64,000 nt of DNA, from positions 4,157 to 68,156 of the forward strand of contig NZ_JABXKJ010000248.1 in NCBI RefSeq assembly GCF_017115085.1. The letters run 5' to 3'. Position numbers and translations under genes: made by a program. Shown here piece by piece: positions 6,467 to 46,632 of the stretch. Below the pieces are notes generated by a model, which was not told where the DNA came from, searched no databases, and worked only from the letters and a program-made list of their open reading frames with translations. How positions within the stretch are numbered: position 1 is the stretch's first letter; each line of letters starts with the position of its first letter. This DNA is from Nostoc sp. NMS7 (GTDB lineage Bacteria; Cyanobacteriota; Cyanobacteriia; Cyanobacteriales; Nostocaceae).

Positions 6467-6473
6467 TGTTAAG

Positions 6474-11519: not shown

Positions 11520-11563
11520 TATTATGTCTATTAAGCTTGCTGCTATTATTTTTTGTTTATATT

Positions 11564-26033: not shown

Positions 26034-26063
26034 GTGCGATCGCAGCACTCCTTTCAAACCACC
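26034..26063 (-). ncRNA. delocalised short crRNA (truncated repeat + 17-nt homing spacer against tRNA-Ala)
   Basis: 26051-26063 matches the repeat 3' part at 12/13 positions. 26034-26050 is the exact reverse complement of tRNA positions 25633-25649. Confidence 0.7.
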
Positions 26064-26645: not shown

Positions 26646-26789
26646 CCCACCCACGAAAACTCGTGCCAACAATGGTTTTTGAAGGCAAATTTGACAAGCC
26701 TTCTTTAATTCCTATTTTCTACAGCCAATGAATAAAATTTTATTCATGACTGAAACAGTAATACCCAGTGCAGACAAGAGTTTTGGACG

Positions 26790-27268: not shown

Positions 27269-27296
27269 CAAAATATAGAATATTGAGGTAGAAATT

Positions 27297-29545: not shown

Positions 29546-29577
29546 AAAACATTGTCAAACATTGTTAAACATTATTG
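29546..29577. promoter_or_regulatory. three tandem AAACATT(G/A)T decamers in the cas12k / RHH divergent promoter region (candidate operator)
   Basis: The sequence is aaaacattgtc aaacattgtt aaacattatt. On the minus strand the middle copy overlaps a TTGACA hexamer facing cas12k. Confidence 0.4.
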
Positions 29578-29602
29578 AGCCTTGTTCCAAGGTTACGGGA
29601 GT

Positions 29603-29803
29603 ATGATGAACTGGCAACAAATCTTTGTAGTGTTGATGAGTCAAAGCGATCGCGTACAAACTTCCATATATTTCCCCAAAGATATCCACGAGGCATTGGT
29701 GAGATGGGCTGAGGAAGAAGACCGTCCCATCAGTAATCTTGTTGTGCGGCTTGTGAGTAAGGCAGTTGAGGAGCGGGAAAAGAAGCAAAATCCGCCGCAA
29801 TAA
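29603..29803 (+). CDS. ribbon-helix-helix (CopG/Arc-type) DNA-binding protein, divergent from cas12k
   Basis: The core VQTSIYFPKDIHEALVRWAEEEDRPISNLVVRLVSKAVEE has the beta-strand/helix/helix pattern of RHH repressors. The start is ambiguous (29582 TTG, 29603 ATG or 29636 ATG). Confidence 0.6.
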   Translation: MMNWQQIFVVLMSQSDRVQTSIYFPKDIHEALVRWAEEEDRPISNLVVRLVSKAVEEREKKQNPPQ

Positions 29804-30000: not shown

Positions 30001-31925
30001 ATGGCAATTAAAAAAAGTGAACTTTATAGTTCGTTATGGAAAAGCTGTGATGAACTGCGAGGTGGCATGGATGCCTCGCAGTATAAAGATTATGTACTAG
30101 TTTTATTGTTTGTTAAATATGTATCTGACAAATATGCAGGTGTAGCAGATGCACTGATTGAAGTGCCTGAAGGCGGAGGCTTCCAGGACATTGTTGCCCT
30201 CAAAGGACAGAAAGATATAGGGGATGGCATTAACAAAATTATCGCCAATTTAGCCGAAGCCAATGATTTAAAGGGTGTTATTGATGTAGCTGATTTCAAT
30301 GATGCCGATAAGCTGGGCAAGGGTAAGGAAATGCAAGATAGGCTTTCCAACTTGGTGGCGATTTTTGAAACCCCTGCTTTGAATTTTAGTAAGAACCGCG
30401 CCGATGGTGATGATATTTTGGGCGATGCCTATGAGTACCTGATGCGTAACTTTGCGACGCAATCAGGCAAAAGCAAGGGTCAATTTTATACTCCGGCGGA
30501 AGTCTCCCGTGTAATCTCTCAAGTTATTGGCGTTAATTCAGCCCAAAGTCAGAGTCAAACGATTTACGACCCGACTTGTGGTAGTGGTTCTCTGTTGTTA
30601 AAGTCGGCGGATGAAGCAGAACGGGGCTTAACCATCTACGGACAGGAGATGGACAACGCTACCCGCGCCTTGGCTCGGATGAACATGATCCTGCACGGAC
30701 ACCCTACTGCTGAAATTTGGCAAGACAATACTTTATCAACTCCTTACTTCAAAGATGCGGATGGTAGCCTGAAAACTTTTGATTTTGCTGTGGCTAATCC
30801 TCCCTTTTCCTCGAAGGCTTGGAGCAATGGACTTAATCTAGCCAAAGACGAATTTAAACGGTTTGATAACTATGGTATCCCTCCGGCTAAAAATGGGGAC
30901 TATGCTTTTTTGCTGCACATGGTTCGCTCCCTAAAAAGTCAAGGCAAAGGGGCGATTATTCTGCCGCATGGGGTGCTGTTTCGCGGGAATGCGGAGGCGG
31001 AAATTCGGAAAAATCTGATTAGCAAGGGAATTATCAAGGGGATTATTGGGCTACCGCCGAATCTGTTTTATGGGACGGGGATTCCAGCCTGCATTATTGT
31101 GTTAGACAAGGAAGATGCCGAGAATCGCCAAGGCATTTTTATGATTGATGCCAGCAAGGGGTTTGTTAAAGACGGCAATAAAAACCGCCTACGGGAGCAG
31201 GACATTCATAAAATTGTTGATGTCTTCAACAAACAGCTTGAAGTGGCGAAGTATTCGCGGATGGTGTCAGTTCAGGAAATTGCGGGGCATGAGTACAATC
31301 TGAATATCCCGCGCTATATCGACAGTCAGGAAGAGGAAGATATTCAGGATATTGAGGCGCATCTGTTGGGGGGGATACCCGCTATTTTAAAGCTGAACAG
31401 GCGGCGATCGCTACCTTGGAAACGAAAAAGGATGAAATTGTTCGCCAGCAGGAGGAACTGCAAGAAGAACATGGCGGTGAGGAGGGTTTGCTAGAGGAAG
31501 CCACTAATGACAGTGGGAAAATTACCAAAGCGAATGTCAATGATCGCATTAAGGCAATCAAGAATGATGCCACGTTTGCGGATGAGTTAAAGGTATTAAA
31601 GGCTTATTTAAAGCTGATTGAGCAAGAGGCGGAAATTAGTAAAGAAATTAAAGTATTGACTCAATTTTTGGATAATTATATTTTAACAAGATACGGGGAT
31701 TTAACCGAGGACGAGATAAAAACGCTGGTAGTAGATGATAAGTGGATGCCGACGTTAAGACAGGCGATCGCTTCAGAGATGGATCGGATTTCGCAACGGT
31801 TGACAAAGCGAATCCAGGAGTTGGCGGAACGATATGATACGCCTTTACCGGAGTTGACGAGTCGTGTGGAGGAGTTGACGGCTAAGGTTGAAGCGCATTT
31901 GCAGAGGATGGGGTTGGTGTGGTAA
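30001..31925 (+). pseudogene. hsdM: type I R-M methyltransferase subunit HsdM, reading frame broken at a G7 tract
   Basis: HsdM_N region (LWKSCDELRGGMDASQYKDYVLVLLFVKYVSDK) and N6-MTase motifs (DPTCGSGSLL, VANPPFS). After GGIP (31369-31380) the frame decays into an R/K-rich tail. The coiled-coil C-terminus continues in another frame (ORF 31416-31925). Confidence 0.8.
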
Positions 31926-32392
31926 CGGATAAACAGGAAGGAAACTATAAAATTTATCTTGATGTTTGTTGTCTAAATCGTCCTTTTGACGACTGCACAC
32001 AAGAGCGAGTTCGTTTAGAAGGGGAAGCTATTCTTAGCATTATGGAGCGCATTCGTATTAGAGAATGGCGACTTGTTACCAGCGAAGCTATCAGGGTGGA
32101 GTTAGAGAAAATGCGTAATCTCGACAAATTAGAGAATATATTAAAATTCTTGGAATTTGCTGTGATTACTATCAATATAGATGAAGGTGTAGATTTTCGC
32201 TCACAGCAATTGGAGAATTTAGGTTTTGGTCTTTATGATTCTTTTCATATTGCTTGTGCAGAAGTTGCTCAGGCAGATGTCTTACTTTCTACTGATGATC
32301 GGTTACTGAAGAACTCACTACGGCATCAAGGTTTGTTAAAAGTGTCTGTGGATAATCCTGTAACTTGGTTGATGAATACTTATTTAAATTAG
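31919..32392 (+). CDS. PIN-domain protein (toxin-like), paralog 1
   Basis: Contains YKIYLDVCCLNRPFDD ... DSFHIACAE ... LLSTDDRLL. It is 40-50% identical by eye to ORF 34169-34654. Its start overlaps the hsdM stop (GTGGTAA). Confidence 0.7.
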   Translation: MVTDKQEGNYKIYLDVCCLNRPFDDCTQERVRLEGEAILSIMERIRIREWRLVTSEAIRVELEKMRNLDKLENILKFLEFAVITINIDEGVDFRSQQLENLGFGLYDSFHIACAEVAQADVLLSTDDRLLKNSLRHQGLLKVSVDNPVTWLMNTYLN

Positions 32393-32404
32393 GAGGATAA
32401 ATAA

Positions 32405-32605
32405 ATGATGACACCAATTGAGTTGAGAAAAAAAGGTTATCAAATTTTAGTAGAACATTTGGGTCAAGTAGATGCTATTCGCTTTTTACAACAAGCTGGA
32501 TGGGGAAGCGGTGACTATACACAAGAAAGAAAGGAAACGTTAGATAAAGTCACAAGAGAAGAGTTTTGGGAAGACCTGAAGCGGATTAGAAAAACATCGT
32601 GTTGA
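32405..32605 (+). CDS. small partner protein of PIN paralog 1 (antitoxin-like)
   Basis: MTPIELRKKGYQILVEHLG..DAIRFLQQ..GSGDYTQER is a paralog of ORF 34641-34856. Its last codons are supplied by the 21-bp repeat array. Confidence 0.5.
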   Translation: MMTPIELRKKGYQILVEHLGQVDAIRFLQQAGWGSGDYTQERKETLDKVTREEFWEDLKRIRKTSC

Positions 32606-32705
32606 AGTACCCAAACATCGTGTTGAAGTACCCAAACATCGTGTTGCAGTACCCAAATATCGTGTTGAAGTACCCAAATATCGTGTTGAAGTACCCAAAT
32701 ATCAT
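32588..32705. repeat. tandem array of ~5.5 units of a 21-bp repeat related to the 6474-6690 array
   Basis: The unit is tacccaaa(c/t)atcgtgttgaag, head to tail. It shares the core ccaaa-n-atcgtgttgaag with the array at 6474. Confidence 0.85.
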
Positions 32706-32740
32706 ATAGAAAGGTTAATTAAGCTCTTTAAACGATTTAC

Positions 32741-32840
32741 GCAGAGGATTAAGGAGTTGGTGGAACGGTATGATATGCCTTTATAAGAGTTAACGGCTAA
32801 GGTGGAGGGGCATTTGCAGAGAATGGGGTTGGTGTGGTGA
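32741..32840 (+). other. degenerate duplicate of the hsdM 3' end (scar) abutting hsdS
   Basis: About 85% identical to 31795-31925 with a ~22-nt deletion. It ends with the same ...GGGGTTGGTGTGGTGA junction, which overlaps the hsdS GTG start. Confidence 0.7.
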
Positions 32841-34159
32841 AAAAAAGTCTGAATCACGGATTAGAGGGATTACGGGATGACACGGCAGGGATAGAGGGGT
32901 ATAAAAAAACTGAGGTGGGGGTGATTCCTGATGATTGGGAAGTAAAAAGGTTAGGTGATATTGCTGATATAAAAACAGGCCCATTCGGCTCCTCTCTACA
33001 TGAAAAAGATTATGTTGAGGATGGCACACCTATTATCACAGTCGAACATTTAGGTGAAAAAGGGGTAGTGCATAAAAATTTGCCAATGGTTTCCCATGCA
33101 GATAAAAATAGATTAAGTGCTTACATTCTTAAAACAGGTGATATTGTTTTTAGCCGTGTTGGATCTGTAGATAGAAATTCATTAATTAGCGATGTGGAAA
33201 ATGGCTGGCTATTTTCTAGCCGCTTACTAAGAATTAGAATTAATCCTCAAAATATTAGCCCTGCATACCTGAGCTATCATTTTCATCAAGAACCAACAAA
33301 ACAGAGGATTAGAAGTGTTGCAGTTGGTCAAACAATGGCATCACTTAATACTGAAATACTAAAAAATATTGAAGTTATTCTTCCGCCAACTCGTCTTGAA
33401 CAAAAAGCGATCGCTCAATCCCTCAGCGATGTCGATGCCTTGATTACAGAGTGCGATCGCATCATCTCCAAAAAGCGCAACACCAAGCAAGGCACGATGC
33501 AGCAACTCCTTACGGGCAAAAAACGCCTCCCCGGTTTTAGCGGTAAGTGGGAGGTGAAGAAATTAGAAGAAGTAACAGCAATTACAAGACTCGCAGGTGC
33601 AGAATATTCTTCTGTATGGAAGGAAGATGATAATGGTGAAATAATTGCATTGAGAGGATTTAATATTGTAAAAAATCGAATCATTGAGAAAGACTTAGCC
33701 AGAATTTCAAATGAACTTTCTTTGAAGCTAAATAGATCAAGACTTTATAGAGGCGATGTTGTTTATCCTTGTGTAGGAACAATTGGAAATGCAGCTGTTA
33801 TAGAGGAAGATGATAAGTACCACATTCAGCAAAATATTGCCAAAATAACTCCTATCAAAAGTGTCCTTTCATCATATTATTTAGCTCATTATTTGATAAG
33901 TCCTCTTGGATTGGATGAAGTCTTAAGGTTTAACGCAACTTCCAGTCAGCCAAATGTTTTAGTAGGAAGTTTAAGAAAGTATAGGATTCCCCTCACTTCT
34001 ATACCCGAACAAAAAGCGATCGCCCAAATCCTCAGCGACATGGATACAGAAATCGCAGGCTTAGAACAAAAGCGCGATAAATACAAAGCTATCAAACAGG
34101 GCATGATGCAAGAATTATTAACCGGAAAAACTCGCCTAAAATATGATTTAAATAAATAA
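32834..34159 (+). CDS. hsdS: type I R-M specificity subunit HsdS (two TRDs)
   Basis: Two target-recognition halves, each followed by a conserved helix (LEQKAIAQSLSDVDALI; PEQKAIAQILSDMDTEIAGLEQKRDKYKAIKQGMMQELLTGKTRL). Confidence 0.9.
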   Translation: MVKKSLNHGLEGLRDDTAGIEGYKKTEVGVIPDDWEVKRLGDIADIKTGPFGSSLHEKDYVEDGTPIITVEHLGEKGVVHKNLPMVSHADKNRLSAYILKTGDIVFSRVGSVDRNSLISDVENGWLFSSRLLRIRINPQNISPAYLSYHFHQEPTKQRIRSVAVGQTMASLNTEILKNIEVILPPTRLEQKAIAQSLSDVDALITECDRIISKKRNTKQGTMQQLLTGKKRLPGFSGKWEVKKLEEVTAITRLAGAEYSSVWKEDDNGEIIALRGFNIVKNRIIEKDLARISNELSLKLNRSRLYRGDVVYPCVGTIGNAAVIEEDDKYHIQQNIAKITPIKSVLSSYYLAHYLISPLGLDEVLRFNATSSQPNVLVGSLRKYRIPLTSIPEQKAIAQILSDMDTEIAGLEQKRDKYKAIKQGMMQELLTGKTRLKYDLNK

Positions 34160-34168
34160 TTAAATAAT

Positions 34169-34654
34169 ATGGGTAGAAAATATAAAATATATCTTGATGT
34201 TTGTTGTTTAAATCGTTCATTTGACGACCAAACACAGCCGCGAATTCGTTTAGAAACAGAAGCGATTTTAGAAATTATCAGCCGTTGTCGAGATGGAGAA
34301 TGGGAATTGGTCAGTAGTACAGCCCTAGAATCGGAAATTGCACAAACCCCAGATGTAGCCAGAAGAGAACAGGTACTTGAAGCATTAGCGATCGCTCAAC
34401 ATCAGATTTTAGTCACCGAAGAAATATCTAGACGAGCTATAGAATTAACAAACTTTAATATTAAAAATTTTGATGCGCTTCATATCGCTTGTGCTGAAGG
34501 GAACGCCGACATTTTCTTGACAACTGATAACCGTCTATTGTCAAGAGCATTAAACTATAAGAATAACTTAAACATAATAGTTGCTAACCCAATGATCTGG
34601 TTAGCAGAAGTTACCACTAATCTCGTAGAAGGAGGAGAAAATGACCCCGATTGA
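34169..34654 (+). CDS. PIN-domain protein (toxin-like), paralog 2
   Basis: Contains YKIYLDVCCLNRSFDD ... DALHIACAE ... FLTTDNRLL. Confidence 0.7.
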   Translation: MGRKYKIYLDVCCLNRSFDDQTQPRIRLETEAILEIISRCRDGEWELVSSTALESEIAQTPDVARREQVLEALAIAQHQILVTEEISRRAIELTNFNIKNFDALHIACAEGNADIFLTTDNRLLSRALNYKNNLNIIVANPMIWLAEVTTNLVEGGENDPD

Positions 34655-34856
34655 ATTATATAGAAAAGGATTTCAAGCCTTAGTAGATGCTTTGGGATAT
34701 CCTGATGCTATCCGGTTTATTCGCCAATTTGACAACGGAAGTGGAGACTACACCCAAGAACGTCATCAATGGCTCGATCAGCTAACGATGGATGAAATCC
34801 TCACAGACATTAAGCAACGCCAAAAAATATCTGACTCCAAGAATCAGGAACAATAA
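34641..34856 (+). CDS. small partner protein of PIN paralog 2 (antitoxin-like)
   Basis: Contains MTPIELYRKGFQALVDALGYPDAIRFIRQFDNGSGDYTQER. It overlaps the PIN gene by 14 nt. Confidence 0.5.
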   Translation: MTPIELYRKGFQALVDALGYPDAIRFIRQFDNGSGDYTQERHQWLDQLTMDEILTDIKQRQKISDSKNQEQ

Positions 34857-34945
34857 TGAGCCAAGTTGGACAACGGGAACGCCTAAGCCAAAACCGCAAA
34901 CAGGGAATCATGCAAGAATTATTAACCGGAAAGACAAGACTAATT
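34856..34945 (+). other. chimeric scar: hsdR 5' remnant fused to hsdS 3' remnant
   Basis: 34856-34898 is about 80% identical to the hsdR start (35802-35844). 34899-34945 is about 85% identical to the hsdS 3' end (34093-34140). The translation reads MSQVGQRERLSQNR|KQGIMQELLTGKTRL. Confidence 0.6.
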
Positions 34946-35075
34946 AGCAGTTCTTAATCAACGCCAAGGTTTTCAACCGCCAGTCTCTAAAATAGAAGTT
35001 AGAAAGCTCCCCCATTAGCAGCAAACGCCGCACACACTAACGACCAATTCCAAATGACAAGGGCTAAAGCATATT

Positions 35076-35312
35076 ATGGAACACATTGCTACCAGCGAAT
35101 TACCCGAAACGCTTCAACAAATATTTGCAGAAATACAACGCACCAAAACACCCTTAACCGTCACCCATGAAGGAGAACCCTTAGTCATTATCTATCCTGC
35201 CACTCCTCAACCCCACCGCCCAGCATTTGCAGTAATGAAGGGTAGCGGCGAAATATTGGGAGAGGTGATTGCTCCAGTAATTCCTGCTAACACATGGGAA
35301 GCCCTCCAGTGA
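35076..35312 (+). CDS. Phd/YefM-type antitoxin
   Basis: 78 aa with TPLTVTHEGEPLVIIYPA, typical of the Phd/YefM fold. It overlaps the downstream PIN gene. Confidence 0.65.
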   Translation: MEHIATSELPETLQQIFAEIQRTKTPLTVTHEGEPLVIIYPATPQPHRPAFAVMKGSGEILGEVIAPVIPANTWEALQ

Positions 35313-35698
35313 AGCTCTTAATTGATACCCACATCTGGCTTTGGTATTTGCTTGGTAACGAACGCCTATCTCCTCAGCTTCAAACCATTATTGCAGCAGG
35401 AACAACCGAACTTTGGCTCAGTCCAATTAGTATCTGGGAAACGCTACTCTTAGCAGAAAAAGGACGACTATCTTTACAGCCGAATCCAGTTGCATGGGTC
35501 GATTTAGCCTTAAATACCCTAGAAATTCGTGAGGCTCCACTTAATCGCCACATCGCTATTTTAAGCCGTCAGATTAATTTACCACACCAAGACCCAGGCG
35601 ATCGCTTTATTGCAGCTACCGCAGTTTACCACCAGTTGATATTAGCTACAGTCGATACCAATCTCACGGGTGCTTCCTGGTTACAAACATTAAGCTAG
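35294..35698 (+). CDS. vapC: VapC-family PIN toxin
   Basis: Contains LLIDTHIWLW ... SPISIWE ... DPGDRFIAATA ... LATVDTNL, giving the acidic PIN quartet pattern. Confidence 0.8.
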   Translation: MGSPPVKLLIDTHIWLWYLLGNERLSPQLQTIIAAGTTELWLSPISIWETLLLAEKGRLSLQPNPVAWVDLALNTLEIREAPLNRHIAILSRQINLPHQDPGDRFIAATAVYHQLILATVDTNLTGASWLQTLS

Positions 35699-35801
35699 AC
35701 AGAAAATTCACGGATAACACAAATAAAGATGACATAGTTTGATAAACAGTGTCATATTTAAAGCTGAGTAAATCCGTGATTATCACAGTGAGAGAGTTGC
35801 T

Positions 35802-38800
35802 ATGAGCAAGGTCGGACAACGCGAACTCCCAACCCAAAACCGCATTGTGCAATTATTCCAGCAACAATTAAACTATCGGTATCTGGGTAATTGGCACTAC
35901 CGACCTAACAACAGCAACATTGAAACGGAAATCCTCAGCACCTTCCTTGGCGACAAACAAGGCTACAGCAACAGCCTCATCACCAAAGCCTTGTATGAAC
36001 TCAACAAAGTCGCAGGCGACAAAAGCCTTTATGACATCAACAAAGAAGTTTATAGCCTGCTGCGTTATGGGGTGAAAGTCAAAGAAGAAGTTGGCGAGAA
36101 TACCCAAACCGTTTGGCTGATCAACTGGGAAGAACCCCTAGAAAATGACTTTGCGATTGCTGAAGAAGTCACAGTTAAAGGCAAAAACCCTAAACGCCCA
36201 GATATCGTACTTTATGTTAATGGTATTGCGATCGGTGTACTCGAACTCAAACGCAGCATCATTTCCGTCTCTGAAGGCATCCGCCAAAACCTCGATAACC
36301 AAAAATCCATATTTATTAAATCCTTCTTCACCACCATGCAGTTAGTCATGGCAGGTAACGACACTGAAGGACTCCGCTACGCCACAATTGAAACCCCAGA
36401 AAAATACTTCCTCACTTGGAAAGAAGATACTAACAGCGACATCACCGATCCTTTAGATAAACACCTGCTGCAACTCTGCGCCAAAGAACGCTTTCTAGAG
36501 TTAATTCACAACTTTATCGTCTTTGACCGGGGTATAAAAAAAGTCTGCCGCCATAACCAGTATTTTGGGGTTAATGCTGCCCAATCTTACCTCCGTCGCC
36601 GAGAGGGGGGTATTATCTGGCATACTCAAGGCAGTGGTAAAAGCTTGACAATGGTTTGGCTAACTAAATGGATTCGGGAAAACATTACTGATGCTCGTGT
36701 TCTGATAATTACTGATCGAGATGAACTAGACAAGCAAATTGAGAATGTCTTTAAGGGAGTCAACGAAGCGATTTACCGCACTACAAGCGGGAAAGACCTA
36801 ATTAACAAACTCAACAGCACCACCACCTGGTTACTCTGCTCCCTAATCCACAAATTTGGCAAGAAAGACAAGGCAGACGACGCAGACTACAACAGCTACA
36901 TCGAAGAACTCAAGCGCAGCCTGCCCAGCGACTTTAGCGCCAAAGGCGATATCTATGTATTTGTGGATGAATGTCATCGCACCCAATCAGGCACACTGCA
37001 CGACGCGATGAAAGAAATCCTACCCAATGCTGTATTCATAGGCTTTACAGGCACACCCCTACTCAAAAAAGACAAGCAAAACAGCATCAACGTTTTTGGT
37101 GATTACATTCACACCTACACATTCAAAAAAGCCGTAGCCGACCAGGTTATCCTTGATTTGCGCTACGAAGCTCGTAATGTTGACCAAAACATTACCTCAC
37201 AAACCAAAATTGACCAGTGGTTTGAAGCCAAAACTAGAGGTTTAACAGAACACGCCAAAACCCTACTCAAGAAACGCTGGGGAAATCTGCAAAAAGTTCT
37301 CAGTTCAAAATCCCGGTTGGAAAGAATTGTCAGCGATATTCTGCTAGATTTTGAAACTAAAGACCGCTTGCAAAGTGGTCATGGTAACGCTATGCTCATC
37401 TCTGGTAGCATTTACCAAGCTTGTAAATATTACGAGTTATTCCAAAGCGCTGGTTTTATCAAATGTGCCATTGTCACATCCTACAAACCTTCCCCGAATG
37501 ATATCAAAGGCGAAAGTACGGGAGAAGAGGAACTGACGGAAAAATTACGGCAGTACGAAATTTATCAAAAAATGCTCAACGGCAAAGCGGCAGAAGTATT
37601 TGAAGACGAAGTTAAAAATAAATTTGTCGAAGAACCAGCCCAAATGAAACTGCTGATTGTAGTCGATAAGTTGCTGACGGGATTCGATGCACCTTCTGCC
37701 ACTTATCTCTACATCGACAAAACCATGCGCGACCACGGACTATTTCAAGCCATTTGTCGCGTCAACCGCTTGGATGGTGAAGATAAAGAATATGGCTACA
37801 TCATCGACTACAAAGACTTATTTAAAAGCCTGGAAAAATCAATTAACGATTACACCAGCGAAGCATTTGAAGACTACGAACCAGACGACATCGATGGATT
37901 ATTGAGTGACAGAATCGCCAAAGGCAGAGAACGCCTAGAAAATTCCAGAGAAAGCATTAAAGCCTTGTGCGAATCTGTAGAGCAACCCCAAGACACCCAT
38001 GCCTATATTCGCTATTTCTGCGGTGCCGATACTGAAAACCCAGACTTTATAAAAGAAAATCAACAACAGCGCATTGCCCTTTATAAATACACATCAGCTT
38101 TAGTCCGAGCCTATGCTAACCTATCCAATGATATGGCAGAAGCCGGATACACCACAACAGAAACTGAAATTATTAAACAAGAAGTTAAGCATTACGAACA
38201 GGTACGCGCAGAAGTAAAGCTAGCCAGTGGTGATTATATTGACTTGAAAGCCTACGAACCCGCCATGCGTCACTTGATTGATACCTACATTGGGGCAGAA
38301 GAAAGCGAAATAATTTCAGCCTTCGACGACATGACACTAATTCAGTTGATTGTCGAACGCGGTGCAAATGCAGTTGAGGCATTACCCAAAGGCATCAAGC
38401 AAAACCAAGAAGCCGTCGCGGAAACCATCGAAAACAACTTACGCAAAGTTATTATAGATCAACAGCCGACCAACCCGAAATATTTCGACAAAATGTCCAC
38501 ACTGTTGAATGAGTTAATCCAAGCACGAAAAGCAGCCAGCCAAAACTATAAAGCCTACTTACAGAAAATTGTTGAGTTAAGTAAACAAGTTGCTCAACCG
38601 AGTAGCTCATCACAGTATCCTCAATCATTGAACTCTCCTGCTAAAAGAGCTTTATACGATAACCTTAATCAAGACGAAGCGTTAGCTCTAGCGATAAATG
38701 ACGCGATTCGCAAAATCAAAAAAGATGGGTGGCGTGGAAACATAATGAAAGAGCGCGAAGTAAAAAATGCCATTAAGAAATATTTAGATTCCCCGGAAGA

Positions 38801-38846
38801 TTGCGATCGCATTTTTGAAATAGTCAAGAGCCAAAGCGAGTATTAG
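35802..38846 (+). CDS. hsdR: type I restriction endonuclease subunit HsdR
   Basis: 1014 aa. N-terminal nuclease region (PDIVLYVNGIAIGVLELK), helicase motifs (TQGSGKSLTM; VDECHRTQSG; TGTPL) and a C-terminal helical domain. Confidence 0.95.
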   Translation: MSKVGQRELPTQNRIVQLFQQQLNYRYLGNWHYRPNNSNIETEILSTFLGDKQGYSNSLITKALYELNKVAGDKSLYDINKEVYSLLRYGVKVKEEVGENTQTVWLINWEEPLENDFAIAEEVTVKGKNPKRPDIVLYVNGIAIGVLELKRSIISVSEGIRQNLDNQKSIFIKSFFTTMQLVMAGNDTEGLRYATIETPEKYFLTWKEDTNSDITDPLDKHLLQLCAKERFLELIHNFIVFDRGIKKVCRHNQYFGVNAAQSYLRRREGGIIWHTQGSGKSLTMVWLTKWIRENITDARVLIITDRDELDKQIENVFKGVNEAIYRTTSGKDLINKLNSTTTWLLCSLIHKFGKKDKADDADYNSYIEELKRSLPSDFSAKGDIYVFVDECHRTQSGTLHDAMKEILPNAVFIGFTGTPLLKKDKQNSINVFGDYIHTYTFKKAVADQVILDLRYEARNVDQNITSQTKIDQWFEAKTRGLTEHAKTLLKKRWGNLQKVLSSKSRLERIVSDILLDFETKDRLQSGHGNAMLISGSIYQACKYYELFQSAGFIKCAIVTSYKPSPNDIKGESTGEEELTEKLRQYEIYQKMLNGKAAEVFEDEVKNKFVEEPAQMKLLIVVDKLLTGFDAPSATYLYIDKTMRDHGLFQAICRVNRLDGEDKEYGYIIDYKDLFKSLEKSINDYTSEAFEDYEPDDIDGLLSDRIAKGRERLENSRESIKALCESVEQPQDTHAYIRYFCGADTENPDFIKENQQQRIALYKYTSALVRAYANLSNDMAEAGYTTTETEIIKQEVKHYEQVRAEVKLASGDYIDLKAYEPAMRHLIDTYIGAEESEIISAFDDMTLIQLIVERGANAVEALPKGIKQNQEAVAETIENNLRKVIIDQQPTNPKYFDKMSTLLNELIQARKAASQNYKAYLQKIVELSKQVAQPSSSSQYPQSLNSPAKRALYDNLNQDEALALAINDAIRKIKKDGWRGNIMKEREVKNAIKKYLDSPEDCDRIFEIVKSQSEY

Positions 38847-38847
38847 G

Positions 38848-39552
38848 ATGCACCAAATAACTGTCGGTGAACTCGTCATAGACGTTGCCAGAAAAGACAT
38901 TAAAAACTTGCACTTGGCAGTGTACCCCCCCGATGGTCGAGTACGTATCGCCACACCCTTAAACATTGATGACGAAGCTGTGCGTTTATTCGCTATCTCC
39001 AAACTAGCCTGGATTGAAAAGCATAAAGCTAACTTTGAAACGCAAGAACGCCAGTCAAAAAGAGAATTTGTATCTGGTGAAAGTCATTACTTTCAAGGAA
39101 AACGCTATTTATTAAATGTCATTTATGGACTGGGTAATCCCAAAGTAGAAGTTAGAAATAATACTTATATCGACCTTTATGTTAGAGAAGGAAGTAATGA
39201 AGCGCAACGCCAACAAGTCATGATGTCTTGGTATCGACAGCAGTTAAAACAGGAAATTCCCCCATTAATCGAAAAATGGCAAAGGAACATGGGAGTAAAG
39301 GTTGAGGACTGGGGGATAAAGCTGATGAAAACCAAATGGGGTACTTGCAACATCCAAGCAAAACGTATCTGGCTCAACCTCGAACTAGCGAAAAAAGATA
39401 AGCGTTGCCTAGAGTATGTTGTAGTTCATGAAATGGTGCATCTGTTAGAACGTCATCACGGCGATCGCTTTGTGGCTTTCATGAATAAGTTTCTGCCGAA
39501 TTGGAAATTTTGTAAGGATGAGTTAAACCGCTCCCCACTTGGAAGCTATTAA
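38848..39552 (+). CDS. DUF45/M48-type (YgjP-like) zinc metallopeptidase
   Basis: HEMVHLLERHH zinc motif near the C-terminus. It starts 2 nt after the hsdR stop. Confidence 0.8.
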   Translation: MHQITVGELVIDVARKDIKNLHLAVYPPDGRVRIATPLNIDDEAVRLFAISKLAWIEKHKANFETQERQSKREFVSGESHYFQGKRYLLNVIYGLGNPKVEVRNNTYIDLYVREGSNEAQRQQVMMSWYRQQLKQEIPPLIEKWQRNMGVKVEDWGIKLMKTKWGTCNIQAKRIWLNLELAKKDKRCLEYVVVHEMVHLLERHHGDRFVAFMNKFLPNWKFCKDELNRSPLGSY

Positions 39553-39814: not shown

Positions 39815-40726
39815 TCAAAATAGCTTACTCCAGTTACGACGAAGAATTACACCACGATAGTCTTCGATATAACTCAATGCTGCTCGATTGGTATCAATTA
39901 CTTCTTCAAAATCTCTTGCTTTATCACGAATGTTAACCGAGCGGAGCTTTTGAAGGATTTGCTCGGCAGAATCTAATAGGTTTCTGTGATATTCAACTGA
40001 TTCATCAAATGAGCTTCGCCTGGATGCAAGAGTCTGTGTTCTCAAAGTCTGCAAGTAATGACGAAATGACTCTGATTCCCTAAATCCAGTGGAGCTAGGC
40101 TGAGATCCGCTAAAGAGAATTTTTGCCTCCCAAATAAGGTCACTATTACTAGGTAAGTTTGGTAGCAACAAATAAGATTCTGAAGCAAACCAAGTATTTT
40201 GAAAGGCTTGATTAAGTCCTTGTTGCCAATTATTAATTTTTGCCTCTATCACGATTAATCGTTGGATCGCAAAAATTTCTTCTAATGGTTTAGCTTCCCA
40301 TCTACCTTCCTTGCAATGAATAAGATTTGCCTCAAGTAAACGGCGTAATGATTTGTAGAAATAATTAGGGAAAACCATTTCTAATGTTGATGTTTCAACA
40401 CTAAGTTCAGAAAATATATAATGCAAAATACGTAAGTCAAGCTTAGTAATTTTTAACCTTGTAGGCAACCATTTTTTAGCAATATCAGGTTGAAAGTAAA
40501 CAATAACAATATCAGGAAATCCTGAATCAATTTGAGGCTCTAAAAAAATGAATTTTAACTCCCCATTTTCCGATGGTGATAATAATTTTGATTGAATATA
40601 TTTGTATACCATTTCATATTCAACACCTTTAGTTGGCTTTCTCAATGATAAACTAAGCGTTCCTAAAGATGGAAACTCTTGAAAATTTTCTGACTGAATA
40701 ATAATAGTATGTGAAGAAAGTTGCAT
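39815..40726 (-). CDS. hypothetical protein with PD-(D/E)xK-like motifs and an inserted wHTH-like segment
   Basis: 303 aa. GFPDIVIVYF and IVIEAKINNWQQGLNQAFQ resemble nuclease motifs II/III. A very AT-rich 300-bp region lies upstream. Confidence 0.5.
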   Translation of the reverse strand: MQLSSHTIIIQSENFQEFPSLGTLSLSLRKPTKGVEYEMVYKYIQSKLLSPSENGELKFIFLEPQIDSGFPDIVIVYFQPDIAKKWLPTRLKITKLDLRILHYIFSELSVETSTLEMVFPNYFYKSLRRLLEANLIHCKEGRWEAKPLEEIFAIQRLIVIEAKINNWQQGLNQAFQNTWFASESYLLLPNLPSNSDLIWEAKILFSGSQPSSTGFRESESFRHYLQTLRTQTLASRRSSFDESVEYHRNLLDSAEQILQKLRSVNIRDKARDFEEVIDTNRAALSYIEDYRGVILRRNWSKLF

Positions 40727-41030: not shown

Positions 41031-41543
41031 TTAGTAAGCTTTATGTCGCTTTTTCATACTTCTAAAAGGAGCATGGCATTTGTTACATTCTCCCTGTTCC
41101 CATAACGCTGGGATAGTAAAACGCTCTTTGCAAAAGGGACATTCTGAAAGTAGACGTAACTTGTGGCGATCGCACCCCACGGTTGATTGAAACTGCCACT
41201 CTAATCGATGATATGGTTGCTCTACATAACACACAGCACACAACCGTATTGGCTCCATTTTCATTTTTTCACCCTTGGGCGGGAGCATTTGAGCAATTCG
41301 ATCTACATCTAAACCAATTAATTTAGCAATTGCCTCTAATTCCTTTTGACTGGGAACCGGATTCAACCGAAATTTCTCCCACCTTGCTAATACTGGGCCA
41401 ATTCCTGCGGCTTTACTTAAACTACCAGGAGACGAGACGCAAACTGCTTCGTGTCGCCTAAATCGTCCAAAATAGTGACTAATACTCTCCCCTTCGTTGG
41501 GTTCTACATACCAAGGCGGATGTTGAACAGCTTCTGGCTCCAT
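41031..41543 (-). CDS. tniQ: TniQ (short, type V-K form)
   Basis: 170 aa. N-terminal EGESISHYFGRFRR, HTH-like middle, and C-terminal zinc-ribbon cysteines (CAVC...CDRH...CPFC...CNKC). Confidence 0.85.
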   Translation of the reverse strand: MEPEAVQHPPWYVEPNEGESISHYFGRFRRHEAVCVSSPGSLSKAAGIGPVLARWEKFRLNPVPSQKELEAIAKLIGLDVDRIAQMLPPKGEKMKMEPIRLCAVCYVEQPYHRLEWQFQSTVGCDRHKLRLLSECPFCKERFTIPALWEQGECNKCHAPFRSMKKRHKAY

Positions 41544-41719: not shown

Positions 41720-42028
41720 ATCAAAGAGTGCGATCAGAAATTTTAGGAATCTTTTCTCGCCTATCTCGCCAAAGCCTCGTGGATATCTTGGGCGGAAAGA
41801 TTATATCGAAGTTTGTCCGCGATCGCTTTGGCTTATCAACTTTAGAAAGATTTATCGCCAGATCCATCAGATCGCTGCAACCTTCTTTAAAAACTCAAAA
41901 AGGTTTAGCAATGTTTTTTAATGTGTGACAATGTTTGTATGCTAAAGTAAGAATATTGAAAAACACTAATTTAATGCTTGCAGTAACTTGAAGAATGCTT
42001 ATAGCTTTTGAGATATGGGAAAGCCTCT

Positions 42029-42340
42029 ATGCGTGATATTCTCCCCCAAATACCGCCAGTAGCAATGCCAGAGGTAATTCCCAGCGAATTACCCCAGCAG
42101 AAATATCATCTCGGTGAATGGGTGCGCTGGTTTCAAGTACTCAATGGCGATTTTGGTCGTGTCATCGGAGTAATCTACACCCAACAAGCTAGTTGCATCG
42201 CCACTGGCTTGCACTACTTGATTTTGTTAGATGAGCGCAGTCCCTCTCGTGACACCTGTACCTGCGACTTCGCTTTCGAGGATGATATCGAATCCTTGGA
42301 TAATTCATCCTTGCTACGGCTTAGGGGCAATCATGTCTGA
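42029..42340 (+). CDS. hypothetical protein (opposite strand to the tns genes)
   Basis: 103-aa ORF from the ATG at 42029. Its stop overlaps the next ORF's start (ATGTCTGA). Confidence 0.4.
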   Translation: MRDILPQIPPVAMPEVIPSELPQQKYHLGEWVRWFQVLNGDFGRVIGVIYTQQASCIATGLHYLILLDERSPSRDTCTCDFAFEDDIESLDNSSLLRLRGNHV

Positions 42341-42617
42341 AACTCAAAATTTTCAGCAGTTGCTAAAACTGCACAACCAAATATTTATGTCCCCTCAAGA
42401 CTTTAGTTACCGTTGGGGATTGGGTTACGAAGAATTAGCAAAAATCTGTGCCATCTCTAAATCTACGGCTTATCACTGGTTGAGTGGACAAGCCAGCCGC
42501 CGAGAAGCTGGATTGCCTTACCAGAGAATTATGGCTGTGGCTGATTTTCTTTTCACCAACGCCGAAGTAATTAACCCACTGTTGGAACAGTGGCATAATT
42601 CTCAACCACCAAATTAA
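42333..42617 (+). CDS. small helix-turn-helix protein
   Basis: YEELAKICAISKSTAYHWLSG is a classic HTH. It is coupled to the upstream ORF. Confidence 0.6.
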   Translation: MSETQNFQQLLKLHNQIFMSPQDFSYRWGLGYEELAKICAISKSTAYHWLSGQASRREAGLPYQRIMAVADFLFTNAEVINPLLEQWHNSQPPN

Positions 42618-42825
42618 TTCTTCAGTTTTTGCAAATTGACAAAACTTTTCTTCATCACCTTGACTGACATAAAAAATAGGTAGTAGGGTGCAATTTATCG
42701 TCACCAGCCTACCCACTGTTCCATGAACCGCTCCACCAATGACTCTTATTACCTGCCCTCCAGTATTGAATTGACACAAAACCATGTCCTGATTCATCGC
42801 TTGGCAATCCCTCTCAAAAATGCCA

Positions 42826-43572
42826 TCAGCTACTTACAACAATTCCCCCACTCAGAACATCTTGAGTAAGAAATTTTTGCTCCCAATCGTCCACAACTTC
42901 AATAACATCTTCTTCAGTTAAGTTGGGAAACTCGTATGGCTCTAAAAATGAGTCATGAACGCGCACGTATGGAAGACTTTTTCGTTCGAGAATATTATCA
43001 CTTAAATAGTAAGTTCCAACCAAGATAATAGGGATTCGTCGTTTCGTAAAAATATCAATTAGTTCGTTAAATCCTTCCAAAGTTAGGTAGTCAGCATTAC
43101 CAACTATGAGTATTTTGACACCATAGCTTTTAAGAGTTCCCCATGCCCGCGATCGTAAATCTCGCAGCGCTCCAATATTAGTAAGCGGATGACCCACTTC
43201 TTCTAGAATTGAGTAATACAAATCTGTTGGGCCACCATGCTGATCAATTTCGGCATAAATAACAGTCGCCGGAATTTCTAACAATGTCCCTCGCCGTTTT
43301 ACATATTGCATCCTATAGAGTTGGCAAGATTTCAGCAAACCAGAACCTGTAGCAGATGTAACATAACCACAGAGTTTTGCATCACGCTGGTCATCAAGCC
43401 AGTCAAATAATTCTGTATCGCGGTCTAATGGTAAGTAAGTGTCAGCTTTACCAATTCGCTCAACTTCAGCTTGGATCTTTGGTGAGCGACGCAGTTCCTC
43501 AGCAGACTGTAAACTAGCATCAAACTGCTTCTGAAGTTTTGGTTCTACATGGGCTAAGTTAGTCTCTGACAT
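42826..43572 (-). CDS. tnsC: TnsC-like AAA+ protein with degenerate Walker motifs and truncated C-terminus
   Basis: Collinear with ShCAST TnsC as I recall it (LFDWLDDQR..., VIYAEI...GGPTDLY, PIILVGT, WEQKFL). However, it reads TSATGSGLLKS in place of GESRTGKT and ILIVGNAD in place of LIIDEAD. At 248 aa it ends about 55 aa early. Confidence 0.8.
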   Translation of the reverse strand: MSETNLAHVEPKLQKQFDASLQSAEELRRSPKIQAEVERIGKADTYLPLDRDTELFDWLDDQRDAKLCGYVTSATGSGLLKSCQLYRMQYVKRRGTLLEIPATVIYAEIDQHGGPTDLYYSILEEVGHPLTNIGALRDLRSRAWGTLKSYGVKILIVGNADYLTLEGFNELIDIFTKRRIPIILVGTYYLSDNILERKSLPYVRVHDSFLEPYEFPNLTEEDVIEVVDDWEQKFLTQDVLSGGIVVSS

Positions 43573-43577
43573 TTTAC

Positions 43578-43775
43578 TTACCAGTTATCTTTCACAAATT
43601 GGTTCCAATTTTGTACCCCTACTCTCGGTCGTCTAGCCTTGGTAGTGCGATTAGTTTCAGATTTGTCCTGTTTGTCTATAGAATTTACAGGTTTTTGTGA
43701 GGCAATATCAGGTGCAGATGTAAAACTTTCTTGTGATATAGTTGTTTCCTCCAGTATTGCATTTTCAGGAAACAT
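43578..43775 (-). other. detached C-terminal tail of TnsB (same frame, downstream of the TAA)
   Basis: This ORF is in the same frame as tnsB, 10 sense codons after the stop at 43806-43808. It ends 5 nt before the tnsC ATG, where an intact tnsB would be expected to end. Confidence 0.5.
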
Positions 43776-43805
43776 TTCAACAATTTTCGATCTATTAGAC
43801 TTTTG

Positions 43806-45479
43806 TTACTGTTTTACTTGAGCTTTTCTTTGCCGTTTTCTACGACTTTTACGTTCTTGTTCCACGTCCTCAAATATATTTAGTCGTTCATTCAAAATTG
43901 AAGAATTATCAACTTCCTTAGCTTCCACCCGAAGCTTCTTCTTAATCCAATTTAATTCCCCCAGAGAAAGCCTCTCTTTTTCTAAATCCCTAGCTTTTAC
44001 AATACCAATAAACTCTCCTGGTTGACCGTCAAGAGGACGAGTATAAGCAAGCAGAGTTACAATATTGCGCTGGTCATATCTTAAGGAAATTTTCTGACCT
44101 TCATACTTTACTAAAGAATCTCCCTGATACACCAAACCTCCAAAGTTGGCAGAACCATATTTTTCGACATTCCGATACGCAACTTTCATTAAGCAGATGT
44201 CTAATTCACGTTCATCGAAAACTTCTGGATCACTTAAGAGCATTGATTTCCAGCGTTTAATACGTTTTTGGTTTTTTACCTTTGGATAATCATGCTGATT
44301 GTAGTGGTCTACAAAATATCTCACTAATATTCTTTCTAGCTTATCAAGTGTTAAACATGCAGTTCTCTCTGCTTCTTTAGGGCGTTCCTCAATACTCGAT
44401 CCGGTATATCCTCCATATAAAGACAAAACTTCCTTATTAATCTTGTCAAATATAGTCTCAATTAAACCGCCTGCCGATGGAAAAGCACGTAGCCGACGTT
44501 GGAAACCTAACTGTAGCGAAATTTGCTTCAAATGTGCAGACTTAAATTCCTTGGCGCGGTCTGTAACTAAATATTCTGGAACACCGAGAATATCCCATTC
44601 TTCTTGCAGTTTGTACTCTGGTTCGTAATGCTTTGGCAACATTGAATGACGAAAGGCAAGTGCAACTTCATGTGACCCAGCAGCCTCATATCCCAAATAA
44701 AACCCAACCACACAACCAGAATAGCTATCCATCACTAATGTTATGTAAGGGCGACCAATAATTTCTTTGTCTTCATCATCAATCAACAAAATATCTAACT
44801 TGGTATGGTCAACCTGCCAAATCTGGTTGCTATGGGTAATTTCTAAAATTCCTTCAGTTGTCTGAATAATTTGTCCTTCTGTTGGTGAACCGGGATGGCG
44901 AACTATTCTGCTTTCTTGGTCAATATTAAAATTTATAACTTTATAGACGGTGACATGAGAGGGACACTTTCTCTCTATTAAATCCTTTAATACCTCTGGG
45001 TATTGTTTGAATTTTTCAGCATACTTTTTAGAGCGTAGTTCTTCACCCTTAGATGCCAAAGCTATCAAGTATCCGTGAATTTGATTATGATTTACCCGCG
45101 AACCCTCTTTTTGACCCCATTTATGAATTTCAACTATAAATTGGAACCATTGTTTGCTAATACGAAACTGCCCTTTATCCTGACGACCAACTGCAAGGGT
45201 AGCAACTCCGTCTTTTTGAACTCTCTCAACCATTCGTCTTATAGTTCGGATGCTTTTGCCAAGTGTTTTAGCAGCCTCTGCGATCGCCTCTCTGCGAGTA
45301 TTCTTATCAGGTGCTTGCACAATGGCATCAATGACATCGACTTTTTGCTGAAACTCTGGCGCATCATCATTGAACAGTAGATAAGGCTTTCCCTCTACCT
45401 GCTCCCCACCCTGCTCCGTAGCAACAACTTCCTCATGATCGGAGAGATTAGTGCCTTGACTCAAAGAACGCGTAGACAT
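43806..45479 (-). CDS. tnsB: TnsB DDE transposase (Tn7/Mu-like), prematurely terminated
   Basis: N-terminal HTH domains and a DDE core (IWQVDHTKLD; YLVTDRAKEF; GGLIETIF). 557 aa up to an in-frame TAA. Confidence 0.9.
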   Translation of the reverse strand: MSTRSLSQGTNLSDHEEVVATEQGGEQVEGKPYLLFNDDAPEFQQKVDVIDAIVQAPDKNTRREAIAEAAKTLGKSIRTIRRMVERVQKDGVATLAVGRQDKGQFRISKQWFQFIVEIHKWGQKEGSRVNHNQIHGYLIALASKGEELRSKKYAEKFKQYPEVLKDLIERKCPSHVTVYKVINFNIDQESRIVRHPGSPTEGQIIQTTEGILEITHSNQIWQVDHTKLDILLIDDEDKEIIGRPYITLVMDSYSGCVVGFYLGYEAAGSHEVALAFRHSMLPKHYEPEYKLQEEWDILGVPEYLVTDRAKEFKSAHLKQISLQLGFQRRLRAFPSAGGLIETIFDKINKEVLSLYGGYTGSSIEERPKEAERTACLTLDKLERILVRYFVDHYNQHDYPKVKNQKRIKRWKSMLLSDPEVFDERELDICLMKVAYRNVEKYGSANFGGLVYQGDSLVKYEGQKISLRYDQRNIVTLLAYTRPLDGQPGEFIGIVKARDLEKERLSLGELNWIKKKLRVEAKEVDNSSILNERLNIFEDVEQERKSRRKRQRKAQVKQ

Positions 45480-45505: not shown

Positions 45506-45688
45506 TGACATCATTTACTTTAAAAGTTTATCAGATAAATGACATCATTTGCTTTAAAACTTGCGAGAGAATAATAAAAGCAGAAATATAGCTCAAAGAC
45601 TTTTGTAGTAAGGCTTTGAGCTTGTTGGACATTTATCGTAAAACTGGACATTAATTCTTTAAAAGTGACAATAATTATTTAATGGACA
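45506..45688 (-). repeat. tnsB-proximal transposon end with five TnsB-type repeats
   Basis: Copies of the motif (reverse complement of TTTTAAAGnAATnATGTCCA) lie at 45506-45525, 45540-45559, 45626-45643, 45645-45664 and, terminally, at 45665-45688. Confidence 0.75.
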
Positions 45689-46297
45689 ACTGCGATCGCC
45701 TGGAGACGAGAACGCATTACCTGCGACGAAGAAGAACGCCTCAAATACGGTTACAATATCACCACCCATTTCCGTTACGACCAGCAAAAACGCCAATCAG
45801 CAACGGTACAAACCGCCGATGGCACAGAATTATTACGTTTAACCTACGGCGCTACGGCAGACATCTGGCATATTAATCGCGGACTGAACAAGAAAAAAAG
45901 TGAGGAACGAGGATTTAAACTCGATATCAAAACTGGTATTTGGGGCGATGCCAAAAACGACTCAGCAAAAGATAGCATTCACACCGATGTTAATTTAATG
46001 GTGAAAAACACCTGCAATATCTTAGTTGTTGAACCATTAAGTGTACCCACAGACGAAAGAGAAGCTTTTATTGCCACTCTGCAATATGTCTTAGAAACTG
46101 CCATCCAAGCAGTCTATAAATTGGAAGCCGATGAACTCGACTCGGAACGCCTGGGAGACGGTAAATATTTGCTGTTCTGGGAAGCGGCAGAAGGCGGTGT
46201 AGGTGTCCTTTCTCAACTATTAGAAAAGCCTGATGCTTTCCAAAAAATAGCCGATGCAGCTTTAGATATTTGCCAATTAGCAATTTTGCTAATGTGA
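45689..46297 (+). pseudogene. internal fragment of a helicase-associated DUF1998-type gene (both ends missing)
   Basis: The frame is open from the first base after the transposon end: TAIAWRRERITCDEEERLKYGYNITTHFRY...LLFWEAAEGGVGVLSQLLEKPDAF.... There is no start codon context, and the expected C-terminal Cys cluster is absent. Confidence 0.6.
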
Positions 46298-46545
46298 CTG
46301 TAGTTAAAGCACCACAGTTGATATCACCAATATTTATAAAAATTTCTGATATCTACGACGATAAGCAAATTCTGAAAATCAGTGAAGCACTCCTCGAAGC
46401 TTCACCCAATCGCTACCGTCTTGTCATCTTAGTAGCTCGCCGTGCTAAACAAATATTTAAAAATTACGTAGAGGAAGATATAACTTTAAAAAAAGCAGTC
46501 ATACAAGCGATTGAAGAAATGTCCCTAGAATTATCACAACTATAG
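46294..46545 (+). CDS. RpoZ-like (RNA polymerase omega family) small protein, divergent
   Basis: SPNRYRLVILVARRAKQ and KKAVIQAIEEMSLELSQ resemble the cyanobacterial omega blocks SNRYRITVQVANRAKR and MKPVLRAIIEMSDELTQ as I recall them. The start codon is uncertain (GTG 46294, or TTG 46270/46318). Confidence 0.5.
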   Translation: MTVVKAPQLISPIFIKISDIYDDKQILKISEALLEASPNRYRLVILVARRAKQIFKNYVEEDITLKKAVIQAIEEMSLELSQL

Positions 46546-46632
46546 ATTTGACTGGCACAACAGTCAACAAGATCATAAAAAAAAGGAGCCTGACTCAGAC
46601 TCCTTAATAAAAAACTAATAATAGAATTGTGA

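Follow-up and report, generated by a model that had tools for sequence, protein, structure and literature searches.

The transposition regulator TnsC of a type V-K CRISPR-associated transposon (CAST) in Nostoc sp. NMS7 was found to lack the motifs with which AAA+ proteins bind and hydrolyze ATP, and the loss is shared by a whole clade of homologs. The element lies in a stretch of 64,000 nucleotides (contig NZ_JABXKJ010000248.1, positions 4,157 to 68,156), called the window in the following, and its tnsC gene occupies positions 42826-43572 on the minus strand. The explanation that accounts best for all observations, to which we assign a probability of roughly 0.6, is that the mobile V-K_V2 lineage carries a selected, pocket-less AAA+ TnsC working as a nucleotide-independent adaptor, and that the copy in the window is a broken member of this lineage.

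Nucleotide-Binding Motifs of the Window TnsC

The truncated tnsC gene encodes 248 amino acids (aa), as determined from the open reading frame (ORF) call, Pfam and structure-based homology. Its Pfam matches are AAA_22 (E-value 1.2e-16) and TniB (8e-7), and the closest solved relative is the TnsC of ShCAST (ShTnsC; 7m99/8rdu; E-value 3e-20), which supports the assignment as a V-K type TnsC homolog made in the first-pass annotation. The gene is located between tnsB, coding for a Mu-type transposase (45479-43806), and tniQ (41543-41031), all on the minus strand.

The HMMER alignment of ShTnsC and the window protein is gapless across both nucleotide motifs, and MAFFT concurs. At the former Walker A site (43333-43356, minus strand) aa 73-80 read SATGSGLL opposite G60-ESRTGK-T67 of ShTnsC, with leucine in place of both K66 and T67. 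The former Walker B strand (43084-43116, minus strand) reads KILIVGNADYL; its segment ILIVGN stands opposite ShTnsC M140-LIIDE145, and G158-N159 occupy the positions of D144-E145 (D144 to G, E145 to N). At the former arginine-finger site (42946-42960, minus strand) VHDSF is aligned with VLERF of ShTnsC, and R189 is replaced by serine. The patterns [AG]xxxxGK[ST] and hhhhDE had zero matches in the whole window TnsC. The first-pass annotation had described a P-loop without GxxxxGK[ST] and a Walker B Asp-Glu pair changed to Gly-Asn, and both descriptions were confirmed. A wrong alignment register was rejected, as HMMER, two MAFFT runs and the whole-protein pattern scans agreed on the earlier one.

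Motif Loss as a Character of a Clade

The substitutions had been taken for a property of this single copy. This view could not be upheld, since they are shared by 103 of 103 homologs found with the window sequence and by about 17 deeper clusters. In all 103 homologs, most of them 301-325 aa in length, Walker A and Walker B are replaced in a like manner, the variants being SATGSGLL/GN, SAYGSGLS/DQ and VDRLGLSK/NN as well as NQ and NY. The hosts comprise many Nostocales together with Gloeothece, Leptolyngbya, Allocoleopsis, Microcoleus, Nodosilinea and Stenomitos. An exhaustive phmmer search was run against 1.84 billion cluster representatives. All full-length matches to an E-value of ~2e-25 are without GK[ST]; they show 32-49% identity and fall into ~17 clusters at 50% identity. 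Beyond this boundary nearly all sequences carry GxxxxGK[ST] (P0165 is unaligned there), and the ShCAST-like ones keep the DE pair too. The P-loop-less sequences are monophyletic in a neighbor-joining tree.

The functional residues of ShTnsC (G60-T67, M140-E145, Q185 and R189) were taken from structure preprints. The Walker A lysine (K66), the Walker B glutamate (E145) and the arginine finger (R189) were each found in 0 of 24 clade representatives and in 16 of 16 canonical DE-type relatives. The R189 position is occupied by Thr, Ser, Ala or another residue in the clade and by Ser in the V2 proteins. No match to hhhhDE was obtained in the 127 clade sequences scanned, and the Walker A pattern matched in P0050 and P0125 only. 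P0050 is a TnsB-TnsC fusion whose match lies outside the TnsC-homologous part, and the same is assumed for the match in P0125 (558 aa). The P-loop is replaced in all 26 intact tnsC genes from other genomes, and the segment SATGSGLLKAC is almost invariant within V2.

The lineages nearest to the P-loop-less clade (P0140, P0147, P0148, P0150, P0163, P0170, P0180 and others) have kept GK[ST]. They carry DN, DD or DQ in place of the Walker B DE, and most are without the R189 arginine finger. These residues hint at a stepwise loss of the ATPase function. A charge-swapped protomer interface (ShTnsC R95/H97 vs. E162/D163; E/D vs. K/R in V2) was also considered; it was not relied on, because R95, H97 and D163 vary even among canonical relatives.

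Selection and Predicted Fold

The ratio of nonsynonymous to synonymous substitution rates (dN/dS) was calculated by the method of Nei and Gojobori (NG86) for 22 V2 sequences (231 pairs). The median for tnsC was 0.11 (range 0.06-0.30; median dS 0.76), compared to 0.10 for tniQ and 0.17 for tnsB. By this measure tnsC is constrained as strongly as tniQ and more strongly than tnsB. The protein identity among V2 loci is 80-98% for TnsC vs. 66-95% for TnsB. Prolonged evolution without ATPase constraint, as had been suggested at first pass, is right in spirit, the loss being clade-wide; the purifying selection on the gene is nevertheless strong (dN/dS ~0.11).

The AlphaFold2 model of a full-length relative of 306 aa (P0003) reached a mean predicted local distance difference test score (pLDDT) of 88.3 and a predicted template modeling score (pTM) of 0.82. 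Its top Foldseek match is TnsC in the ShCAST filaments (7m99_A; E-value 2e-17, template modeling score (TM) 0.83), with other TnsC proteins, MuB and ORC/Cdc6 ranking next. The AAA+ fold, an alpha/beta part plus lid, is therefore confidently predicted to be retained in full-length V2 TnsC.

C-Terminal Truncation of tnsC by a Deletion

The early end of the ORF was confirmed, as the nearest relatives of the window TnsC are 306 aa in length and the last 68 family residues are missing from the 248-aa window copy. Codons 1-238 (43572-42859) are homologous to the 306-aa V-K_V2 TnsC, and the homology ends at aa 238. With two full-length relatives (P0001/P0003) as tblastn queries against the window, residues 1-238 aligned and nothing else; ShTnsC matched at 43476-42850 only. 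Codons 239-248 and the stop codon are a read-through over a deletion junction (VLSGGIVVSS).

The junction (42855-42860) was located by comparison with seven related loci. The two segments joined there lie ~1.5 kb from each other in L006, L010, L013, L021, L022 and L023, while the same breakpoints are separated by 3.25 kb in L001, because that locus holds additional tnsC and tnsB fragments there. Missing from the window are the final ~200 bp of tnsC together with the greater part of a convergent gene of ~437 aa. The residues lost correspond to the last three lid-domain helices, which are confidently predicted (247-292 of the full-length-relative model). On the basis of these comparisons the truncation of the window tnsC is attributed to a deletion of ~1.5 kb.

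A frameshift near 42826, continued in the minus-strand ORF 42435-42797, had been proposed at first pass. This was not borne out. No TnsC-like sequence was found in this ORF or elsewhere in the window by tblastn (relatives at E-values of up to 10, ShTnsC up to 1), the matches stop at 42850-42859, and the breakpoints are fixed in comparison with the seven related loci. The stretch of ORF 42435-42797 is conserved, with the L001 genes called on the opposite (plus) strand, and judged from these searches it is unrelated to TnsC.

The additional fragments of L001 are located at 11230-12422, between an intact tnsC and tniQ. They consist of a second, diverged tnsC fragment (76% aa identity, residues 141-303) and a tnsB fragment (73% identity, residues 203-394), and are interpreted as the trace of a recombination between V2 elements.

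Nonsense Codon in tnsB and State of the Window Copy

The tnsB gene (43806-45479, minus strand) ends at codon 557, with a change of GAA to TAA at codon 558 of 633 (stop codon at 43806-43808) where L001 reads GAA. The orphaned 3' end of tnsB, the last 75 codons, follows at 43578-43805 (minus strand) in unchanged frame, and a 65-aa ORF (43578-43775) falls inside it. This tail is near-identical to the TnsB tail of L001 and includes the conserved ...VQNWNQFVKDNW. The window proteins are 97-98% identical to the 306-aa TnsC and 99% identical to the 633-aa TnsB, and they are cut to 248 and 557 aa, respectively.

For codons 1-238 of tnsC, dN and dS in comparison to L001 were 0.0165 and 0.12, a ratio of ~0.14. 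Both lesions look recent, because tnsC of the window lineage bears no sign of relaxed selection. The window copy of the element is probably dead, with tnsC cut and tnsB carrying a nonsense codon; it would no longer move on its own, since the lesions strike both partners of the TnsB-TnsC contact. This inactivity is likely due to the two recent lesions and not to the motif substitutions. The earlier expectation of a copy that is inactive or mechanistically different is therefore accepted in spirit in its second part, while inactivity as a consequence of the motifs is not. The dS relative to L001 differs between tnsB (0.033) and the adjoining tnsC (0.12), which suggests mosaic ancestry or recombination inside the operon.

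Evidence for Mobility of the V-K_V2 Lineage

Comparative genomics indicates that the V-K_V2 lineage has been mobile. In L010, L015 and L023 an outward-facing element end and the tnsB-side end of the following V2 element are separated by exactly 5 bp (NNTGG) (7841-7893, 7864-7916 and 7858-7910, respectively), and the spacing in L018 is 9 bp (7852-7908). The neighboring element in these junctions is the one with the matched tnsC, and in L010 and L018 the outward-facing end runs into a remnant of ~350 bp of the CRISPR-side end (LE). Such tandem junctions fit a history in which one tRNA site was targeted repeatedly and the older copy then decayed.

The flanks vary between loci, with an A2M gene in L001 and the rplL neighborhood in the window, L018, L026 and L032, and an identical P-loop-less TnsC (P0071) occurs in two unrelated flanks. 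The locus L011 of Nostoc sp. FACHB-152 is a compact V2 element of ~9 kb (tnsB, tnsC, tniQ, small ribbon-helix-helix (RHH) genes and cas12k) that abuts a different tRNA-Ala and holds no second ATPase gene. A cas12k gene was detected within 10 kb in L011, L017, L022 and L031, and the same holds for a locus from Crocosphaera with a TnsC of only 53% identity. No cas12k was detected within 10 kb of the deep members (L003, L033-L037), which is uninformative, as the elements can exceed 20 kb. In the window, the geometry of anchor spacer and tRNA (given below) fits a guided insertion. The first-pass annotation had raised the case of a sizeable clade of active CASTs with the same substitutions. The clade does exist, and the support for its activity is limited to the junctions, the differing sites and the anchor-spacer geometry.

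A Proposed Nucleotide-Independent TnsC and Alternative Explanations

For ShTnsC, structure preprints describe that ATP binding is needed for polymerization on DNA, that ATP is required for targeted transposition, and that TnsB disassembles filaments bound to ATP but not those bound to adenylyl imidodiphosphate (AMPPNP). A TnsC without the lysine, the acidic pair and the arginine finger makes an ATP cycle of this type implausible, and the most likely role of the lineage TnsC is that of an adaptor independent of nucleotide. As a pseudo-ATPase, V2 TnsC would assemble on the target DNA beside Cas12k-TniQ and present a fixed platform, to which TnsB would be recruited without nucleotide binding or hydrolysis. 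A fixed assembly independent of nucleotide would take the place of the filament growth and the trimming by TnsB seen in ShCAST, because V2 TnsC would neither bind nor hydrolyze nucleotide. For the wider claim that the whole Cas12k-guided lineage, V-K_V2 and its deeper relatives, targets and recruits with an ATP-free TnsC, we consider the chances to be even.

Several points weigh against a nucleotide-independent adaptor. The need for ATP is established for ShTnsC and ShCAST, and experiments offer no precedent for a CAST with an ATP-free TnsC. The literature yielded neither biochemical nor genetic tests of a V-K_V2 element, and the evidence for mobility, although consistent, is indirect, being comparative only. 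The window element is not flanked by a 5-bp target-site duplication (CATCT vs. ACTGC). Two DNA-contacting residues of ShTnsC, K103 and T121, correspond to T and A in V2 TnsC, and given these changes DNA binding itself may be altered or lost. Finally, V1 and V2 systems occur together in some strains, among them Anabaena 7120, and a canonical TnsC acting in trans is conceivable.

The last point leads to the explanation that V2 TnsC is a specificity adaptor only and that a canonical TnsC is borrowed from a co-resident V1 CAST, or its role taken by an AAA+ protein of the host. A V1 system together with a degraded V2 system is indeed present in Anabaena sp. PCC 7120, and Tolypothrix tenuis PCC 7101 has the V2 locus L016, and the characterized, ShCAST-like N7CAST is attributed to "Nostoc sp. 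PCC7101" (the identity of the two strains is assumed). We nonetheless regard such a supply as unlikely, as V2 TnsB and TniQ are at most 43% and 61% identical to those of V1 (PMC12416283), which makes cross-recognition doubtful, a canonical TnsC is absent from the window and from every 20-kb V2 locus, and the P-loop-less clade reaches taxa outside the Nostocales. Binding of nucleotide through a non-canonical pocket, formed for example by the lysine of GSGLLK or by the conserved KRRG loop, appears quite improbable. The AAA+ fold and with it a cleft are predicted to be retained, and the near-invariance of SATGSGLLKAC in V2 indicates a functional constraint on this segment; the GSGLLK lysine, however, varies in deeper members (K, R, Q, E, Y or S), the loss extends jointly to the arginine finger and the acidic residues of Walker B, and an alternative P-loop pattern is absent throughout these proteins.

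Two further explanations were weighed. The V2 lineage could be no working transposon at all, its genes being domesticated for another host function or spread passively. Degraded loci are numerous (the window, L005, L019, L026, L031 and L032) and experimental transposition is unreported, but a defunct lineage is given little credence in view of the precise 5-bp end-to-end junctions in three loci, the anchor spacers matching the adjoining tRNA at a fixed distance (window; PMC12416283), insertion sites and tRNAs that vary among genomes, identical TnsC in different flanks, and purifying selection on tnsB, tnsC and tniQ alike. The window copy could also be a decaying pseudogene in which Walker substitutions under relaxed constraint were followed by a frameshift near 42826. 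The ORF is truncated, the adjoining tnsB contains a stop codon, and the element is indeed decaying. The motif residues are, however, alike in the 103 homologs and the 26 intact genes of other genomes, the dN/dS of ~0.14 for codons 1-238 against L001 shows that constraint is not relaxed, TnsC-like sequence is missing from other frames, and the break is a deletion with breakpoints common to seven comparisons. The decaying pseudogene is thus hardly credible as a source of the motif loss.

Taken by itself, the window gives a modest result, a recently inactivated copy; the interest lies in the lineage-wide and selectively maintained loss of the pocket. To our knowledge, it is the nucleotide state of the AAA+ protein that links recognition of the target with activation of the transposase and with target immunity in every Tn7-like, Mu and CAST system studied. 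If TnsC of the V-K_V2 lineage is indeed nucleotide-independent, the ATP-dependent cycle in which filaments grow and are trimmed, regarded as central for V-K CASTs and the Mu/Tn7 family, would be dispensable, and the lineage would be a natural experiment on which roles of the regulator truly need ATP. A fixed assembly might also account for the insertion offset of 54 nt, which is shorter and very uniform. In ShCAST, ATP-driven TnsC filaments are blamed for untargeted insertions, and the V2 elements could potentially serve genome engineering as a V-K system that is simpler and possibly more specific.

Architecture of the Element

The element has a size of ~20 kb (25688-45689) and is inserted 3 nt downstream of a tRNA-Ala. 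The order tnsB-tnsC-tniQ (Mu-transpos_C/rve, AAA_22/TniB and TniQ) beside one end is kept in more than 30 related loci. The tniQ gene (41031-41543, minus strand; 170 aa; Pfam TniQ) is intact. At the other side, cas12k (27297-29384, minus strand) codes for 695 aa and was identified with NF038191 (V_Cas12k, 791 bits; cutoff 150). An Arc_2-type RHH regulator (29582-29803, plus strand; PF07878 RHH_5, E-value 7.5e-11) is divergent from it.

The tracrRNA region, with approximate limits of 26650-27290 (minus strand), holds the V2 anti-repeat 2 AACTACCACCCCC at 26846-26858. It is followed by the CRISPR array (26179-26645, minus strand) with seven repeats of 37 nt and the repeat 3' end GGTGGTGGGTTGAAAG. 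A pseudo-repeat (26051-26063) and a 17-nt anchor spacer (26034-26050) form the unit 26034-26063 (minus strand). The anchor spacer matches positions 25633-25649 of the attachment target tRNA-Ala(cgc) (25612-25684, plus strand); this protospacer stands directly after GGTA, and the distance from the protospacer-adjacent motif (PAM) to the element end is 55 nt. The CRISPR-side end (LE in the Ziemann nomenclature; 25688-25850, inner limit approximate, plus strand) starts with TGTACATTAAAT... and contains repeated TTTAAAGAATTATTGTC sites, and the tnsB-side end (RE; 45520-45689, inner limit approximate, minus strand) has the terminal sequence TGTCCATTAAAT.... The homology to L001, the closest of the related loci, ends at 45689, the same point as the tnsB-side end.

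The cargo (30001-39552) is a type I restriction-modification system with hsdM (30001-31494), hsdS (32834-34159) and hsdR (35802-38846). Three ORFs with PIN domains are interleaved (31919-32392, 34169-34654 and 35294-35698), and a YgjP-like gene (38848-39552) follows the restriction genes. Downstream of tniQ, an ORF of 303 aa (39815-40726, minus strand) had no match in Pfam, NCBIfam or PADLOC; segments resembling PD-(D/E)xK were seen by eye (GFPDIVIVYF and VIEAKINNW). Small conserved genes on the opposite strand lie between tnsC and tniQ (42008-42617 and 41728-41928, both plus strand; L001 14213-15108). They occur in many V2 elements, one of them having a weak HTH_23 match. The segment 41670-41723 is a 54-bp inverted copy of a nearby segment, and a paralog of the ~68-aa gene region adjoins cas12k (29549-29709).

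In the flank of the tnsB-side end (45690-46630, especially 45998-46297, plus strand) a fragment with an MrfA Zn-binding (MZB) domain was found. It resembles the C-terminus of a large DEAD/MZB helicase that is cargo in L033 and L034, and this flank may have been left behind by an older element. Tandem arrays of 21-bp units are present at 6467-6693, 32592-32703 and 63357-63488, one of them inside the CAST cargo, and the units of at least the first two are related (…CGTGTTGAAGTAC…).

Comparison With Known Systems

Based on its Cas12k, its repeat and anti-repeat, its regulator and its anchor spacer, the window element is classified as a type V-K_V2 CAST. This subgroup was named by Ziemann et al. 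(Microlife, 2025; PMC12416283) and is defined by the repeat 3' end GGTGGTGGGTTGAAAG and the anti-repeat 2 AACUACCACCCCC; both are present in the window. A TnsC of 306 aa, an enlarged TnsB and a PAM-to-end distance of 54 nt were given for V2 in the same study. The Arc_2 regulator upstream of cas12k in reverse orientation is defined in PMC9938897 and corresponds to the RHH_5 regulator of the window, which has this position and orientation. In common with V-K_V2 are further the Nostocales-type cyanobacterial host and the PAM-to-end distance of ~54 nt. The near-identical relatives of the window TnsB and TnsC have lengths of 633 and 306 aa, whereas the window copy is damaged (tnsC 3' end gone, tnsB E558*). 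The V2 study characterizes V2 TnsC by its greater length at both termini only, and its main text is without the terms "Walker" and "ATPase" (PMC12416283). The P-loop-less clade is broader than V2 as published, as it includes Crocosphaera, Leptolyngbya, Gloeothece, Allocoleopsis and Nodosilinea. No report of a Walker-less CAST TnsC was found in the literature, including survey papers on Tn7 and CASTs, the coverage of which is incomplete. The V-K_V2 subgroup is thus already published, and the loss of the ATPase motifs in V2 TnsC is apparently unreported. N7CAST was considered as a tested V2 system and rejected; it is called ShCAST-like in the preprint and is read as V1.

The protelomerase-associated transposons and TnsBC elements are cyanobacterial and tnsA-less, and their TnsB and TnsC cluster near those of V-K CASTs (bioRxiv 10.1101/2024.11.13.623437). 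The window element differs from them in having Cas12k, a CRISPR array and a tRNA target, while some deep P-loop-less members are likewise without cas12k within 10 kb.

With TnsC of ShCAST (V-K_V1; PDB 7m99, 7plh and 8rdu) the V2 proteins share the AAA+ fold at ~30% identity (TM 0.83), the position of the gene between tnsB and tniQ, and the partner Cas12k. R126 and R128 of ShTnsC are kept in V2 TnsC, whereas Walker A, Walker B and R189, intact in ShTnsC, are all replaced.

Nucleotide-free AAA+ subunits occur in the clamp loader of E. coli, where delta and delta-prime have retained the fold as a structural or adaptor module. These subunits work alongside active ATPase subunits, whereas V2 TnsC seems to be the only AAA+ protein of its element.

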